24,000 nt of DNA, from NCBI RefSeq assembly GCF_015356115.1, contig NZ_CP063056.1, positions 1,003,296-1,027,295 of the forward strand. The letters are read 5' to 3'. This DNA is from Rodentibacter haemolyticus. GTDB lineage: Bacteria > Pseudomonadota > Gammaproteobacteria > Enterobacterales > Pasteurellaceae. The first letter of the stretch is position 1. Each line of letters opens with the position of its first letter. Positions 2,026 to 15,569 of the stretch are shown piece after piece. The position numbers and the translations under genes were made by a program. The notes under the pieces were generated by a model, which searched no databases, had not been told where the DNA came from, and saw only the letters and a list, made by a program, of their open reading frames with translations.

Positions 2026-2709
2026 TTATCTGCCTTCTCTGTTATCAATCGTTTTTAGCAAATATTGCCCGTTGACGTCCGCTAAACTACGGAATCCGAC
2101 ATTTGTGATTTTGTAAGCATATTTTGTTTGATAAATCACATTATCGTGATGATGGCCGTGGAAAATATGTTTTATTCCCATTTTTTCGGCTAAATCATTG
2201 ATCACCTGAAATCCCATAGGATGCGGTTTTGGTGCTTCGTGACAAATTAAAATATCGGCTTGTTTATTCTCAAGTACTTCAATATCGGAAGGGAAAATCG
2301 AGGTGCGATGGCGTAATGGTACGCCGCCACGCCAGATTTTTTCTTGTGAACTGTATTGACAATAATGAATGGGATCAAAAAACATCGGGCGATTTGGCGG
2401 CATCCAAATTTGCCCACGGAATACGCCGCCGAGACCTGCAATGCGCACGCCTTGAACATTCTCTACACGGTTGTGTAAATTCCGTGTTTTCCATTCACTC
2501 CCCCAAATTGCATCGAAAGCGGCAACGGTATTACTGTCATGATTGCCATGAATGAACCAAATATCACAATATCGTGCCAATTTTTCTAATTCGTCAGGCG
2601 AAGAAAGCTGTAAGTCACCCAGAATAATCAGGGCAACATCGTCATTTGCTTTAACGAAAGGATAGAGATGCTCATAACTGCCATGAGGGTCGCCGGCGAA
2701 TAGAATCAT
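2026..2709 (-). CDS. Calcineurin-like metallophosphoesterase family protein
   Basis: 227 aa with the full metallophosphoesterase motif series: GDPHG, LGD, HGNHD, CHEAP and HGHHHD. Its ATG (2707-2709) is 1 nt from the nadR stop, so it is probably co-transcribed and translationally coupled. Confidence 0.8.
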   Translation of the reverse strand: MILFAGDPHGSYEHLYPFVKANDDVALIILGDLQLSSPDELEKLARYCDIWFIHGNHDSNTVAAFDAIWGSEWKTRNLHNRVENVQGVRIAGLGGVFRGQIWMPPNRPMFFDPIHYCQYSSQEKIWRGGVPLRHRTSIFPSDIEVLENKQADILICHEAPKPHPMGFQVINDLAEKMGIKHIFHGHHHDNVIYQTKYAYKITNVGFRSLADVNGQYLLKTIDNREGR

Positions 2710-2710
2710 A

Positions 2711-3820
<1,110 letters not shown>

Positions 3821-4188: not shown

Positions 4189-4836
4189 ATGAATCAGTCA
4201 ATTTTATCCCCATTCGGCGCAACCGCTGAAGCACGTGTACTGAATGCTATCAACGCATTCAAGAATGGCAACGGTGTATTGGTATTGGACGATGAAGATC
4301 GCGAAAATGAAGGTGATTTAATCTTTCCAGCCGAAACCATCACATCAGAACAAATGGCAAAATTAATTCGTTACGGTAGCGGTATTGTATGTTTATGTAT
4401 CACTGAAGAATTATGCCAGCAGCTTGATTTACCGCCGATGGTAGAGAATAACAGCAGTGTTAATAAAACGGCGTTTACTGTGACGATTGAAGCCGCTAAA
4501 GGAGTTTCTACCGGTGTGTCCGCAGCCGATCGCGTAACCACGATTCAAGCTGCGATCGCAGACGGCGCAAAACCGCAAGACTTACATCGACCGGGGCACG
4601 TTTTTCCACTTCGCGCTACAAATGGCGGAGTATTGGCACGCCGTGGACATACCGAGGCTTCCGTAGATCTTGCTCGACTTGCCGGCTTTAAACCTGCCGG
4701 GGTGATTTGTGAAATCACTAATGATGACGGCTCGATGGCACGCGCCCCCGAAATCATTGCATTTGCCCAAAAATTTGGCTATGTGGTCTTAACGATTGAA
4801 GATTTAGTGGAATATCGTTTAGCACACAATATTTAA
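4189..4836 (+). CDS. ribB: 3,4-dihydroxy-2-butanone-4-phosphate synthase
   Basis: 215 aa with typical RibB blocks ([29 protein letters not shown]). It sits downstream of the FMN riboswitch, with SD aaagga 8 nt upstream of the ATG. Confidence 0.95.
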
Positions 4837-4845
4837 TTTCAGTCA

Positions 4846-4886
4846 AAGTGCGGTTAAAATTCAACGTGATTTTTAACCGCATTTTT
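4846..4886 (+). terminator. Rho-independent terminator of ribB built from a USS and a degenerate inverted USS
   Basis: aagtgcggttaaaa (4846-4859) pairs with ttttaaccgca (4871-4881) and is followed by ttttt. Confidence 0.7.
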
Positions 4887-4926
4887 CGATAATATGCTGG
4901 TGTGTTTTTATATTTAGGATGATTTT

Positions 4927-5699
4927 ATGCACAATACAATACAAAACAACACAATTACGTTATTAGCCTAACCACAGAGACAAAACGCCGAAAACATATT
5001 GAACAAGAATTTGGTAAGCAAAATATTCCTTTTGTATTCTTTGATGCGATTACACCTGAACGCATTGAAGAAATCGCTAAACAATTTAGCATCACCCTTG
5101 ATCGCTCTTCCAAGGCAAAATTGTCGGACGGCGAGATTGCTTGTGCATTAAGCCATATCGCCCTATGGAATTTCGCACTAGAAAATGATCTGGATTATAT
5201 TAATATCTTTGAGGATGACATTCATTTGGGTGAAAATGTCAAGGCATTATTAGAGGTCGATTATCTTCCTCTGGATGTTGATGTGCTGAAATTAGAAGCC
5301 AATGGCAAAATGATTTTTAAAAAGCCGACAGTGATAAAGTGTGGACGAAATATTTATCCTCTGACCTTTAAACAATCAGGTACGGCAGGTTATACCGTTA
5401 CGCATAAAGGGGCGAAATATTTACTTGAGCAGGTGAAAAATAAACCACTTGAACTTGCGATTGATTCACTAATTTTTGAAGATTTTTTGAACTTAAAAGA
5501 TTATAAGATTATGCAACTTTCACCAGCAATTTGTGTTCAAGATTTTATTATCAATAGCGTCCCCTTTGAAAGTAGTTTGAAGAAAGGTCGTGCAGCGGTT
5601 TCCGGTAACCAAAAGAAAGCCTCATTATTAGAAAAAATCAGAAATGAATTTATAAGAGTAAAACGAAAACTATTTATGAAACAGGTACCTTTTAAATGA
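4927..5699 (+). pseudogene. lpsA: Glycosyltransferase family 25 (LOS glycosyltransferase, LpsA-like), 5' frameshifted
   Basis: The GT25 body is open from 4923 to 5699 in one frame (..YVISLTTETKRRKHIEQEFGKQNIPFVFFDAI.., DXD-type NIFEDDIH). The only SD-preceded ATG (4927, AGGA at 4916-4919) is in another frame and stops after 14 codons (TAA 4969-4971). Five ACAAN pentamers occupy 4931-4955. The symbol is assigned by synteny with nadR-ribB only. Confidence 0.7.
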
Positions 5700-5727
5700 T
5701 AAAGAGCGATCAAAATTGACCGCACTT

Positions 5728-5752
5728 TGATCTGCTCCCCAAAAGTTGGACA
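5728..5752. repeat. IS3-family left terminal inverted repeat
   Basis: See the mobile element entry. It is directly preceded by a reverse USS core, ACCGCACTT, at 5719-5727. Confidence 0.8.
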
Positions 5753-5785
5753 TTCAAACCAACAAATTAAGGAGCAGATTCTTTT

Positions 5786-6133
5786 ATGGGCAAACATTAT
5801 TCAACAGACTTTAAATTAAACATCGTTAAAATGATAGGAAACGACCAATTAGGTATCCGAGAAGCGGCAGAACGCTACCATATCTCAAGCCATGCCTCTA
5901 TCGTAAATTGGTTGCAACGTTTCCAAAAACAAGGTATGAACGGGCTTATTCGCCAACCTAATAAGGGATATTCACAAAAAATGAAAAAATATGATGGTTC
6001 GGAGACGGTCAAAGACCTGACGGATAGAAATGCGCTTTTAAAACGAATAGAATACCTTGAAGCGGAAAATGATGTGCTAAAAAAGTTAAAAGCCTTGCGG
6101 GAGCAGAAAGTCAAAAGGAAAAAAGGGTCATAG
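5786..6133 (+). CDS. IS3-family transposase OrfA (HTH DNA-binding subunit)
   Basis: 115 aa with an N-terminal HTH (FKLNIVKMIGNDQLGIREAAERYHISSHASIVNWLQRF) and a C-terminal leucine-zipper-like segment (LKRIEYLEAENDVLKKLKAL). It ends in the A6G slippery run. Confidence 0.85.
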   Translation: MGKHYSTDFKLNIVKMIGNDQLGIREAAERYHISSHASIVNWLQRFQKQGMNGLIRQPNKGYSQKMKKYDGSETVKDLTDRNALLKRIEYLEAENDVLKKLKALREQKVKRKKGS

Positions 6134-6961
6134 TGAATGCCTTAAGACATAGGCATCGCTTGCCCCTGTTATTGCAAATTCTGTCCTTATCCCGTTCAAC
6201 TTATTACTATAAAACGACTGCGCAGGATAATACCCGGATTCGACAGCGAATTTTACAGCTTCATCAAGATAATGAAGGGAGGGACGGCTATCGGATGTTA
6301 CGGGTGAAGTTACGTAAGGAAGGGCTTTTTCTAAGCGGTAAAACCGTGCTTTCACATATGCAAGCCCTGAATATTCGCTCTTGTGTCAAAGTGAAACGTT
6401 GTAGGAAAGGCGGGAAAACAAGCTACGTTGCCCCGAATCTTCTGGCCGGCAATTTTAGTGCGAAGAAACTGAAGCAGAAATTCGTGACGGATGTCACCGA
6501 GTTTCGGGTGGGGAAAGAAAAGTTGTATTTATCACCGATGATGGATTTGGCGAATAGAGAAATTATCGCCTATCAAATAGGGAGACGACCTTCCTTTGCC
6601 TTGGTGAGCGGTATGCTCAAGAAAACCTTGGCACAATTAAGCCGGGAAGATTTACCGATAATCCATAGTGAAAGGCACGCTTTATGGGCTGAAACGTTGG
6701 CGGGAATTGCTTCTTAGAGAAGATGGCACGCCTTATGCGATTCAGAGTATGAGTCGTCGGGGTAATTGCTATGATAATGCGGTAATGGAAAGTTTCTTTA
6801 GTTTATTGAAATCAGAAGCTTTTTACCCTAAACAATTTAGTCATATTGATGAGTTGGAGCAGGCGCTTCACCGTTATATTCGTTATTACAATGAGAAACG
6901 GATTAAATTAGGTTTAAAAAATTTGAGCCCTGTGGATTACAGGACTCAATATTTAAGTTAA
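6133..6961 (+). pseudogene. IS3-family transposase OrfB (DDE/RNase H-fold catalytic part), frameshifted
   Basis: Two ORFs (6133-6717 and 6668-6961) together give a typical OrfB (..LSRSTYYYK.., ..FVTDVTEF.., ..IIHS / KGTLYG.., ..[24 protein letters not shown]..). The frame changes within 6668-6717, most likely at about 6670, where the conserved HSDxG Asp is expected. Confidence 0.8.
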
Positions 6962-14263: not shown

Positions 14264-14485
14264 ATGATTGTTAAATTACCTGCCCTTGGGTTAGTTTGCC
14301 CTTTCCCCCTTGTTGAAGCCAAAGAAGTAATGGCAAAACTCAATAAAGGCGACGGCTTAGAAATTGAATTTGATTGTACGCAAGCCACGGAAGCAATCCC
14401 CGCTTGGGCTGCGGAAGAAGGCTATGATGTAACCGATTTTGAACAAATTGGTAATGCCAAGTGGACGATCACGGTTGTGAAATAA
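14264..14485 (+). CDS. yeeD: TusA-like sulfurtransferase YeeD
   Basis: 73 aa with the TusA/SirA active-site motif GLVCPFPLVEAK. It starts 14 nt after yeeE, with SD AAGGAGA. Confidence 0.85.
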   Translation: MIVKLPALGLVCPFPLVEAKEVMAKLNKGDGLEIEFDCTQATEAIPAWAAEEGYDVTDFEQIGNAKWTITVVK

Positions 14486-14490
14486 ACACA

Positions 14491-14532
14491 AAGTGCGGTC
14501 AAAAAACACGAAGATTTTTGACCGCTGCTTTG
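14491..14532. terminator. USS hairpin (yeeD terminator); left copy of the 35-bp inverted repeat bounding the HNH/XRE cassette
   Basis: aagtgcggtcaaaaa, loop acacgaag, then atttttgaccgcTGcttt. Positions 14491-14525 are the exact reverse complement of 15533-15567. Confidence 0.8.
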
Positions 14533-15060
14533 TTACTTATAACTACGTCTTCCTCTAGGAGATAAGGGATTATCAGGAAATTCTATATATTCAATATCTC
14601 TAATATGGAGTTTTCGTTCTTGTCTCCATTCTAGATATTCAAATAGTGTTTTATTGGTTTTTTCTTTATTACATTTATGACAACTTAAGGTCAAATTGTT
14701 AATATTATTGGAACCACCTCTTGAAATAGGGGTTAGATGCTCAATATCACCTCCCCCATTCAAGGATTTCCCACAAAACCTACACATATCATTTAATTTA
14801 TTTCTTAATATGCTTATTTCTTGTTCTGTGTAGCTACCACCTGCAATCTCCATATGCTGGGATCTTCTTTTGATACGAGCAGCCATAGCTAAAGGGTTTT
14901 CTCTATGATACTTGGCTGTATTAGCTGCCATGCATTTTCTACAAGAATTTCGGTATGCTACCTTAATTGAACCATCACTTCTTTTATTTTTATATTGTCC
15001 AAAGTGTTCTCTATCTACAGGCAAATATTCACCACAATCTTTACAATATTTATATTCCAT
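14533..15060 (-). CDS. HNH endonuclease with N-terminal zinc-ribbon (CxxC...CxxC)
   Basis: 175 aa. The N-terminus has CKDC...CRKC. The C-terminal HNH/His-Me finger core is CRFCG..DIEHLTPISRGGSNNINNLTLSCHKCNKEK. The gene is AT-rich and uses AGA/AGG Arg codons, unlike its neighbours. Confidence 0.85.
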   Translation of the reverse strand: MEYKYCKDCGEYLPVDREHFGQYKNKRSDGSIKVAYRNSCRKCMAANTAKYHRENPLAMAARIKRRSQHMEIAGGSYTEQEISILRNKLNDMCRFCGKSLNGGGDIEHLTPISRGGSNNINNLTLSCHKCNKEKTNKTLFEYLEWRQERKLHIRDIEYIEFPDNPLSPRGRRSYK

Positions 15061-15079
15061 ATATGAAATCCTTAGTTAT

Positions 15080-15113
15080 TTAATGAGTAATTTTATTTCA
15101 TTTTACTTATTAA
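15080..15113. promoter_or_regulatory. Candidate operator: inverted repeat TTAATGAGTAA-N12-TTACTTATTAA in the HNH/XRE divergent promoter region
   Basis: 15080-15090 against rc of 15103-15113 matches at 10 of 11 positions. The repeat is centred in the 95-bp divergent intergenic region. Confidence 0.4.
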
Positions 15114-15155
15114 TAGCACTTCATTCAACATTAAAAACCGACAAAATATCTAAAA

Positions 15156-15521
15156 ATGAGTAAAACTTTATTGATAATGGCACAATTAATATCTACAAAC
15201 ACAGATAAATTGATCGGGGCAAGAATACAGCAGAAAAGAAGAGAGCAAGGACTTTCAGCAGAAAAGCTTTCTGAATTTGTAAATCTTTCGCAACAACAAA
15301 TATCACGCTATGAACGTGGGGCAAGCAAAATTAATATTGCTCATCTAATTGATATTGCAATATTTTTAAGAACTCCAATTAACTGGTTTTTCCAAGACTG
15401 CTTACCAGAAGAACTTACTTCAGAACAACTCCCTAAAAATAATTTTGATCTACAATGGGATACTTTAAACAATGAACAAAAGGAAAGATTTATTTCCTTT
15501 CTTGATTCTATAAGGAAATAA
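15156..15521 (+). CDS. XRE/Cro-family helix-turn-helix transcriptional regulator
   Basis: 121 aa with the HTH_3-type motif IGARIQQKRREQGLSAEKLSEFVNLSQQQISRYERGASKINIAHLIDIA. The start is uncertain (ATG 15156 or 15177) and there is no clear SD. Confidence 0.8.
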   Translation: MSKTLLIMAQLISTNTDKLIGARIQQKRREQGLSAEKLSEFVNLSQQQISRYERGASKINIAHLIDIAIFLRTPINWFFQDCLPEELTSEQLPKNNFDLQWDTLNNEQKERFISFLDSIRK

Positions 15522-15526
15522 CATAA

Positions 15527-15569
15527 GTAACTGCGGTCAAAAATCTTCGTGTTTTTTGACCGCACTTTT
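15527..15569. terminator. USS hairpin; right, inverted copy of the 35-bp repeat bounding the HNH/XRE cassette (bidirectional terminator for the XRE and yhcH genes)
   Basis: aaCTgcggtcaaaaa, loop tcttcgtg, then ttttttgaccgcactt (perfect core 15559-15567). Positions 15533-15567 are the reverse complement of 14491-14525. Confidence 0.8.

Follow-up and report, generated by a model that had tools for sequence, protein, structure and literature searches.

A two-gene XRE–HNH cassette bracketed by inverted copies of a predicted terminator hairpin at the tusA–yhcH junction of Rodentibacter haemolyticus

In a 24,000-nucleotide stretch of the Rodentibacter haemolyticus chromosome (contig NZ_CP063056.1, positions 1,003,296 to 1,027,295; hereafter the window), two divergent genes encoding an HNH-type nuclease and an XRE/Cro-C1-type helix-turn-helix (HTH) regulator lie between the core genes tusA (yeeD) and a yhcH-family gene. 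Sequence comparison indicates that this pair is a horizontally mobile cassette without a recombinase, which appears to have been inserted into a terminator hairpin composed of uptake signal sequences (USS) with duplication of the hairpin core. With modest confidence, we interpret the locus as a horizontally exchanged, recombinase-free cassette of the minimal-mobile-element type residing in the USS hairpin of the tusA-yhcH junction, in which a nuclease gene repressed by the XRE protein would have a restriction-like or defence role. A repeat search of the window reported only one outstanding inverted repeat, and this repeat brackets the cassette. Its arms are 36 nt long, 100% complementary, and separated by 1007 nt; the perfect 35-bp repeat described in the original prediction is therefore real and slightly longer than stated.

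A YhcH scan with one genome per species was performed to survey empty sites, and 50 Pasteurellaceae loci were retrieved. The HNH gene was carried by none of these yhcH loci (0/50). A single USS-pair hairpin was found in the approximately 60-70 bp between tusA and yhcH of R. rarus, R. myodis, R. pneumotropicus, R. heidelbergensis, and R. abscessus, which are the species with short single-hairpin junctions among the Rodentibacter loci at which tusA was located next to yhcH. R. abscessus is the closest relative (synonymous divergence, dS, of yhcH, 0.49), and its empty junction reads AAAGAGCGGTCAAAAAACAAAAAGATTTTTGACCGCTCTTTTCTTACTAAG. The loops of the empty sites resemble the loop of the left hairpin copy of the window. 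These single-hairpin junctions in five Rodentibacter species indicate a true insertion, in agreement with the original prediction, which had proposed an insertion between the two core genes and suggested looking for an empty site with one hairpin in relatives. Furthermore, the inverted repeat aligns with the hairpin of the empty sites, and it is therefore a copy of the target and not an end owned by the element.

The 31-nt hairpin core was found at two sites in the window, both of them cassette borders, with none expected from shuffled sequences. Each copy forms a stable predicted fold on either strand (−17 to −22 kcal/mol, z −4.5 to −6.5). The loops of the two copies are inverted relative to each other (ACACGAAG versus CTTCGTGT), as had been noticed earlier, and the layout of the window is AAAGT, the core with the loop ACACGAAGA, the cassette, the core with the flipped loop, and ACTTTTCTTACTAAG. 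The earlier description of each copy as a hairpin with USS arms holds as far as stable folding is concerned, but a complete USS core is present only on the outer arm of each hairpin (14491-14499 on the plus strand in the left copy and 15559-15567 on the minus strand in the right copy). Because the outer arms alone carry a complete USS core, the two members of the ancestral USS pair now lie apart, one on each outer arm, and it is the 31-nt core that was duplicated. The left copy is a predicted bidirectional terminator for tusA and the HNH gene, and the right copy is a predicted bidirectional terminator for the XRE gene and yhcH. A simple terminator scan flagged neither hairpin; the 9-nt loops exceed the limits of the scan, and folding shows that both hairpins are stable. 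A direct duplication extending beyond the hairpin (a 52-nt, 73% repeat) was tested by shuffling and rejected, the similarity of the flanks not being significant (P 0.24 and 0.49). An inner inverted 9-nt match next to the hairpins, GTTACTTAT, was marginal (P ~0.05).

USS cores (AAGTGCGGT) occur 17 times in the window. No USS core lies inside the cassette, as predicted, although this absence is not significant alone given 17 cores per 24 kb. The sole intact full USS-pair hairpin in the window (AAGTGCGGT...ACCGCACTT, positions 1497-1537) represents the undisturbed form of the terminator type that the cassette split. Short-read contigs of HNH homologues, many of which are 1.0-1.9 kb, often stop near the cassette length (L001 is 1067 bp), and the short-read contig of the window strain stops inside the 36-nt repeats. 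Since contigs end within these repeats, the inverted repeat breaks de Bruijn assemblies, and the context of such cassettes may be hidden in public data.

Four states of the tusA-yhcH junction were observed, namely, empty (L002, L007, L008, L009, L010, and others), occupied by an element resembling a miniature inverted-repeat transposable element (MITE), occupied by HNH and XRE genes (the window and L057), and occupied by a 190-aa open reading frame (ORF; L011 and L017). The MITE-like element lies in the hairpin loop of R. genomosp. 1 and R. mrazii (L004, ~4499-4677; L006, ~4500-4623) and also at the left end of L057; it is ~125-180 bp long, with a GC-rich palindrome in its interior and terminal inverted repeats of ~25 bp. 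An apparent 8-bp duplication, AAATTTTT, accompanies it in L004. In Haemophilus haemolyticus CCUG 12834 (L011:4489-5367), the junction holds an unrelated AT-rich insert of 28% G+C, which is also present in L017. This insert contains one 190-aa ORF (4732-5304) with no Pfam or PADLOC match and lies between direct copies of the USS hairpin (45 nt, 91%).

A second HNH and XRE cassette adjoins yhcH in L057, a contig of 1590 bp, with 81% protein identity and ~80% nucleotide identity to that of the window. Its hairpins (487-536 and 1534-1563) are full USS pairs that are 83% alike in inverted alignment, and the one on the tusA side holds the MITE-like element. The flipped loop is on the tusA side in L057 and on the yhcH side in the window, so that loop orientation seems to flip independently, conceivably as a template-switch 'flip-flop'. 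The dS between the window and L057 was 1.4-1.6 for the cassette genes and 1.07 for yhcH. A recent acquisition is therefore not demonstrable, the cassette of L057 having diverged as much as the flanking yhcH. These divergence values indicate that the cassette is either old at the tusA-yhcH locus or was exchanged long ago, with a sporadic distribution. The perfect repeat of R. haemolyticus is probably a recent homogenization of an older inverted duplication.

The G+C content of the cassette was 0.311, compared with a window mean of 0.412, and was the lowest of all 1007-nt windows (standard deviation 0.034). The G+C content at third codon positions was 0.21 in the cassette versus 0.38-0.42 in neighboring genes, and 13/17 of the Arg codons of the HNH gene are AGA/AGG, whereas core genes use CGT/CGC. 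These values bear out the AT-rich insert and the Arg codon preference noted before, and the earlier spot counts were correct (25% for 14581-14700 and 47% for 14281-14340). The flanking genes tusA and yhcH are convergent, with yeeE beyond tusA on the left and pnp beyond yhcH on the right, and tusA shows 88-93% identity at other Rodentibacter and Haemophilus loci. No DNA methyltransferase domain was found in any ORF of at least 110 aa in the window, and no integrase or phage gene was found near the pair in the same 24 kb, where only an IS3 fragment is present, 8 kb away. The absence of such genes beside the pair had been stated correctly. At 5121-6717 of the window, a truncated glycosyltransferase family 25 (lipopolysaccharide) gene is followed by the IS3-family transposase fragments (an ORF at 5786-6133, and HTH_21 and rve domains at 6133-6717). 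The features of the cassette and the contexts of related genes are listed in the table.

Table. Features of the tusA-yhcH junction in the window and contexts of HNH homologues at other loci
Feature	Position	Strand	Description or evidence
tusA/yeeD, left flanking core gene, 73 aa	14264..14485	+	Pfam TusA 4e-18
Left hairpin copy	14490..14525		AAAGT + 31-nt core GCGGTCAAAAA-ACACGAAGA-TTTTTGACCGC; ancestral loop orientation; orthologous to the single hairpin of empty sites
Zinc-ribbon and HNH nuclease gene, 175 aa	14533..15060	-	Pfam HNH_5/HNH
Divergent promoter and operator region (putative)	15061..15176		Five-locus alignment, motif count, promoter-like scan
Candidate operator palindrome ATGAGTAA-N12-TTACTTAT	15083..15110		Motif conserved in five loci
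XRE/Cro-C1 HTH regulator gene, ORF of 121 aa	15156..15521	+	HTH_3 3e-13, 50 bits versus cut-off 23
Third half-site ATGAGTAA	15156..15163		Overlaps first ATG of the XRE ORF
Right hairpin copy	15533..15568		31-nt core + ACTTT; exact reverse complement of left copy; loop flipped
yhcH-family gene (DUF386), right flanking core gene, 156 aa	15588..16058	-	Pfam DUF386 3e-41; found in 50 Pasteurellaceae loci
Ursidibacter (L052)			Divergent XRE and HNH genes between lysS and an Asp-Al_Ex gene
Muribacter muris (L053)			XRE and HNH genes between an ABC transporter gene and luxS
L137			XRE and HNH genes between menC and a peptidase M15 gene
L133			XRE and HNH genes beside a VapD/Cas2-like and DUF5397 pair
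Spirabiliibacterium			HNH gene alone, between tfoX and rplS
Metagenome-assembled genome (L059)			Integrase-XRE-HNH island with Prim-Pol/PriCT primase and restriction-modification gene
L061			HNH gene directly after a PD-(D/E)xK (HSDR_N_2) gene, integrase island
Cupriavidus plasmid			HNH gene alone

The 175-aa protein belongs to the HNH (His-Me finger) nuclease superfamily. Its Pfam matches were HNH_5 (1e-9, 38.6 bits, cut-off 27.5) and HNH (6e-9, 36.3 bits, cut-off 21.4), and HNH_4 was also matched. The N-terminal CxxC...CxxC motif is a Cys4 ribbon (C6, C9, C40, and C43), and the HNH core comprises C93, C96, E107-H108, N122, C127, C130, and N131; the residues of both are invariant in 18 homologues. 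The HNH block aligns with the catalytic D/E-H...N...N residues of the HNH domains of Cas9 and IscB. An AlphaFold2 model (mean predicted local distance difference test score, pLDDT, 90.8) consists of a four-stranded N-terminal β unit, a helical linker, and a ββα core. Foldseek matches to PDB structures were confined to the HNH part (the HNH of Cas9, Gme HNH, McrA, and Cap5), except for a weak full-length match to PacI, and the N-terminal domain had no PDB Foldseek match of its own. The N-terminal Cys4 zinc-ribbon domain is probably DNA-binding. A word-indexed protein search found 53 relatives with 46-100% identity, and an exhaustive profile search placed 41 representatives at E <= 1e-30 within the very large HNH superfamily. 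A scan of IMG/VR with the family alignment gave no relatives, and tblastn matches in phage GenBank sequences were at most 33% identical. The ratios of nonsynonymous to synonymous divergence (dN/dS) relative to L057 were 0.08 for HNH and 0.065 for XRE. These ratios indicate that both genes are under strong purifying selection and suggest that the nuclease gene is functional and conserved.

The product of the divergent ORF is an XRE/Cro-C1 HTH regulator, its HTH_3 score lying above the cut-off. The pairing of a 175-aa zinc-ribbon HNH protein with an XRE/Cro-type HTH protein was thus described correctly, but the length of 121 aa given for the latter was probably too long. The first ATG overlaps an operator half-site, and the true start is therefore probably at 15177, giving a protein of 114 aa; the matching NCBI protein, P0054, is also 114 aa. 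In the intergenic regions of the window, L057, L126, L128, and L130, the palindrome ATrAGTAA-N12-TTACTyAT is conserved together with a block downstream of it. In a promoter-like scan, a −10-like box of the HNH gene (TAAAAT, 15105-15100, minus strand) overlapped the right half-site, and a −35-like sequence (TTGAAT) was located at 15128-15123. On the strength of these predicted sites, the XRE protein is likely a genuine operator-binding regulator. Of the four occurrences of the half-site TTACTTAT in 24 kb, three fall within the cassette (14533-14540, 15103-15110, and 15523-15530). The middle one belongs to the operator, and the other two are placed in inverted orientation, each 7-8 nt inward of a hairpin. 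Operator half-sites were rejected as cassette ends, because the terminal copies are not kept in L057 or L126 and the left copy is coding sequence. The occurrence of TTACTTAT at both cassette ends is probably due to chance.

The XRE partners of the Pasteurellaceae HNH proteins fall into two unrelated types. The type in L052, L053, and L133-L137 is 128-136 aa long, has a C-terminal coiled-coil-like tail, and shows mutual identity of 62-90%, whereas the type of the window and L057 is only 25-35% identical to it. The family of the window-type XRE is also found in Aggregatibacter actinomycetemcomitans, Glaesserella, Actinobacillus succinogenes, and others, where it is divergent from a 135-138-aa lipoprotein-like gene or from a TbpB-like/Slam operon and is not paired with an HNH gene. 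The XRE protein of the window is 65% identical to an A. actinomycetemcomitans XRE paired with another cargo gene. The cassette of Rodentibacter is chimeric, joining an HNH gene to a regulator module that serves other cargo elsewhere. The XRE protein had been regarded as dedicated to the HNH protein; this view is not tenable, since window-type XRE genes with their operator control a lipoprotein gene or a TbpB-like/Slam operon elsewhere. A specific protein-protein antitoxin relationship between XRE and HNH is unlikely.

The HNH and XRE pair recurs at at least five other core-gene junctions in Pasteurellaceae. Repeated pairing, which the original prediction had raised, was found in the window, L057, L052, L053, L133-L137, and L059. 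The HNH gene was also found without an XRE gene in L058, L125, and L061. All of the cassettes are 28-32% G+C in hosts of 0.37-0.46, and copies at different loci share DNA homology only within the two genes and lack conserved termini. No methyltransferase gene was found next to L052, L053, L137, or L133, and no integrase, transposase, or methyltransferase accompanies the Pasteurellaceae junction cassettes. Distant homologues reside in integrase islands, adjoining restriction-modification, PD-(D/E)xK, or toxin-antitoxin genes. No terminase gene was found in about 12 HNH contexts. An exclusive association of the homologues with terminase or packaging genes, which would have spoken against the original prediction, was not seen, in line with the lack of IMG/VR relatives.

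Duplicated hairpins also flank a cassette that lacks the HNH gene. In A. actinomycetemcomitans, a ~960-bp cassette between dacB and folE (L126:3362-4444) contains a 135-aa lipoprotein-like gene (weak PEGA match) and a window-type XRE gene. Near-identical direct copies of a 60-nt USS-pair hairpin lie on its two sides. With a length of only 1049 bp, the corresponding Logan contig breaks at the repeats. At L133, nested partial repeats of the terminator region were found at 2639-2658, 3246-3266, and 4361-4388. Hairpin duplication around L126, without an HNH gene, and the nested repeats at L133 indicate that hairpin duplication is not a property of the HNH gene. Directly beside the XRE and HNH cassette of L133, a gene for a Cas2/VapD-like protein of 92 aa (PF09827, 2e-5) and a DUF5397 gene are present (2681-3154), which are probably a VapXD-type toxin-antitoxin pair. 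In metagenomic L061 (5232-6510) and L062, an HNH homologue starts 4 nt after the gene for a 254-aa HSDR_N_2/PD-(D/E)xK protein, and the nuclease pair of L061 adjoins a pair of ImmA/IrrE-type peptidase and XRE genes. The L061 pair may be a different, two-nuclease operon.

On the basis of these comparisons, the following course of events can be proposed. Insertion would have duplicated the 31-nt palindromic core of the target hairpin. Because the target was palindromic, template switching or gene conversion between complementary arms, for instance, could have formed the copy in inverted orientation or homogenized it that way, giving the 36-nt repeat. Spread between related species probably depended on natural transformation, with homologous recombination taking place in the conserved genes on either side. 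The divergent XRE protein would bind the palindrome overlapping the nuclease promoter and keep expression of the nuclease gene low and autoregulated. The nuclease itself is most likely a solitary restriction-like or defence enzyme, modification-dependent or rare-cutting, that acts without a methyltransferase. Acquisition by uptake and recombination at USS hairpins had been proposed earlier; the borders do derive from a local USS hairpin and no recombinase is present, but duplication of the target hairpin followed by spread through flank homology accounts better for the locus. A broader proposal, in which the USS-pair terminator hairpins of Pasteurellaceae serve as preferred, recombinase-free landing pads for foreign gene cassettes, whose entry copies the palindrome in direct or inverted orientation, and the XRE-HNH pair is an undescribed two-gene defence system riding this route, is doubtful at present. 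In that proposal, copying of the palindrome in either orientation would suggest a template-switch or cruciform-processing route.

Two alternatives assign a different role to the HNH protein. It is unlikely that the pair is an addiction or toxin-antitoxin module, in which HNH is a DNA-degrading toxin and XRE stabilizes the cassette as an antitoxin through protein binding or labile repression. The architecture of a nuclease and an HTH protein is indeed kept at many loci, and the cassette persists under purifying selection, but the genes are divergent and form no operon, and the cassette was evidently lost from, or is absent in, the closest relative R. abscessus. Weak NCBIfam matches of the XRE protein to the HTH antitoxins MqsA, HipB, and PezA are all far under the cut-offs, and a VapD-like/DUF5397 pair adjoins one cassette copy; set against these, the HNH protein is paired with three non-orthologous XRE types that are 25-35% identical to each other, occurs without XRE in Spirabiliibacterium, on the Cupriavidus plasmid, and in L061, and shares the window-type XRE and its operator with unrelated cargo elsewhere. 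The association of HNH with non-orthologous XRE proteins, and its occasional occurrence alone, favor transcriptional control over a toxin-antitoxin pair. The earlier suggestion of a nuclease toxin with a transcriptional antitoxin is thereby weakened, as most Pasteurellaceae HNH proteins use the different XRE type and some have none. A selfish homing-type cassette, whose HNH protein cuts empty terminator hairpins or cruciforms so that repair copies the cassette in, seems quite unlikely, although it would account for insertion in hairpins and for duplication of the palindrome, as seen at the window and L133. Free-standing phage HNH endonucleases of ~165 aa give full-length structural matches (template modeling score, TM, 0.43-0.46), the best PHROG family is annotated as endonuclease VII (1e-17), and cassette copies are found at several intergenic sites. 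However, the at least five different insertion junctions share no common sequence, several lack a USS hairpin, and the same hairpin duplication surrounds the HNH-free cassettes of L126 (lipoprotein and XRE genes) and L011 (190-aa ORF). A homing gene under the control of a repressor would also be unusual, and it is hard to see how the donor and recipient alleles would be present together during transformation.

The remaining alternatives concern the origin of the pair. An old resident pair, domesticated for housekeeping DNA processing and lost from most relatives, would make the inverted repeat a local terminator duplication with no bearing on mobility. The dS of the L057 cassette, which is comparable to that of yhcH, and the strong purifying selection on both genes agree with this view, but G+C content and codon usage are still strongly atypical, the cassette is absent from all 50 yhcH loci retrieved, the single-hairpin junctions of five Rodentibacter species include that of R. 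abscessus, and homologues occupy different loci in other genera and islands or plasmids elsewhere; we regard it as very unlikely. An immunity remnant of a prophage or phage satellite, consisting of a repressor and an HNH protein, is extremely unlikely: the pair adjoins an integrase and a Prim-Pol/PriCT primase in the metagenome-assembled genome L059, and both XRE types have weak matches, under the cut-off, to RstR-type phage repressors, but no att-like scar marks the clean empty site, the 24 kb contain no phage genes, and the searches of IMG/VR and phage sequences described above yielded no relatives and no match above 33% identity, respectively. A DNA transposon or MITE was rejected because the inverted repeat aligns with the empty site, no target-site duplication is present, and copies at different loci share only the two genes.

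Several observations weigh against our interpretation of a horizontally exchanged nuclease cassette. The cassette of L057 is as diverged as its flank, so that long residence with repeated loss is as possible as repeated transfer. The hairpins of L057 are only 83% alike and have the opposite loop flipped, and the repeat of the window may therefore be a later homogenization and not a scar of insertion. No flanking hairpin duplication was found at L052, L053, L137, or L058. The published duplications of long targets considered below are direct, whereas the copies of the window are exact reverse complements; the inverted orientation may be explained by the palindromic nature of the target USS hairpin. 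In addition, comparison with known defence systems gave only domain-level matches in PADLOC (PtuB, the HNH of Cas9, and mREase_IV at 1e-4).

Current views are not overturned by this locus, and its value is that of a testable model system. It is a clean, sequence-resolved case of a competent bacterium gaining a nuclease gene without a recombinase, and direct comparison is possible between alleles of one site that are empty, filled, or filled with something else. It would also broaden long target duplication to include a palindromic terminator made of uptake signals, at which an inverted copy can arise. The recurrence of the pair across Pasteurellaceae and the purifying selection on it make XRE-HNH a reasonable candidate for a small uncharacterized defence or restriction-like module, and the swapped regulators suggest that conservation concerns the tight control of nuclease transcription and not any one partner protein.

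Among known nuclease systems, the cassette resembles type II restriction-modification systems regulated by a C protein in having a small HTH regulator and a palindromic predicted operator next to the nuclease gene, with weak PADLOC Control_protein matches (4e-4 for the window XRE and 1e-7 for a type-A XRE). Unlike the C regulator, which is co-transcribed upstream of the restriction gene, the regulator of the window is divergent and belongs to a family shared with non-nuclease cargo, and no methyltransferase is present. Such a system was rejected because no methyltransferase is linked, the genes are divergent, and the Control_protein match is only 4e-4; the earlier comparison with half of a restriction system likewise fails for lack of the defining methyltransferase. 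EcoKMcrA (type IV, 6ghc) and PacI (3ldy) are, like the window protein, stand-alone HNH enzymes with a zinc-bound ββα-Me core that do not need a methylase. In Foldseek, 6ghc gave E 2.5e-3, and PacI gave a full-length alignment at E 0.095 with a TM of 0.33, a weak resemblance. PacI has two Cys4 zinc sites and is not known to have a cognate methyltransferase. The alignment with EcoKMcrA is limited to the HNH core, and the zinc-ribbon domain of the window protein is unrelated to the 5-methylcytosine reader of McrA; a McrA-like type IV enzyme by homology was rejected because 6ghc matches residues 97-140 only (E 0.009) and a Cys4 zinc ribbon makes up the N-terminal domain. Phage HNH (homing) endonucleases of ~165 aa (PHROG 1035 and 2118; predicted phage proteins in BFVD) share the arrangement of an N-terminal zinc-ribbon/β domain followed by HNH, and PHROG 1035 covers residues 1-152 at 1e-17. 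These proteins are 20-30% identical to that of the window, whose gene is chromosomal, outside any phage, and under an XRE repressor. A phage packaging HNH protein was rejected, with no terminase in about 12 contexts and no IMG/VR relatives. Septu (PtuA/PtuB) was also rejected, since the PtuB match (1.7e-9) covers the HNH region only and no ATPase gene is adjacent, as was a type II toxin-antitoxin system in the sense of a co-transcribed or co-evolving pair, given the divergent genes, the three non-orthologous XRE partners, and the HNH genes that occur alone.

With regard to mobility, insertion of restriction(-modification) genes with long target duplication is said to have been described by Nobusato et al. 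in 2000. This type of insertion has been reported for all restriction types and for the solitary short HNH gene mcrA, mostly in naturally competent species including H. influenzae, with cases of 39-46 bp, and its criteria are a repeat of >30 bp that aligns with a single copy at the empty site without mobile-element genes; the primary insertion is poorly understood (Furuta, Abe & Kobayashi 2010, PMC2853133). The window similarly contains a low-G+C nuclease cassette without mobility genes in a naturally competent host, and a repeat of >30 bp (31-36 nt) at the 3' ends of the flanking genes that aligns with the single copy of the empty site in a relative. The repeat of the window is not direct, whereas direct hairpin copies are seen at L011 and L126, and the cargo of the window differs in having a regulator and no methyltransferase. 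Minimal mobile elements of Neisseria, for their part, are said to have been described by Saunders & Snyder in 2002 and Snyder et al. in 2007. Their definition is quoted in PMC3082526. As in those elements, the space between two conserved genes is filled by different whole-gene cassettes, or left empty, in different strains and species, no recombinase is present, and the host is transformable and has uptake sequences. Minimal mobile elements were described in Neisseria and not in Pasteurellaceae, and the concept covers neither the primary insertion event nor the hairpin duplication. By its conserved flanks and exchangeable content, the tusA-yhcH cassette is a minimal mobile element. Minimal mobile elements and long target duplication upon insertion have both been published, and the cassette is in broad terms a known kind of mobile gene cassette, here with an inverted duplication of its target.

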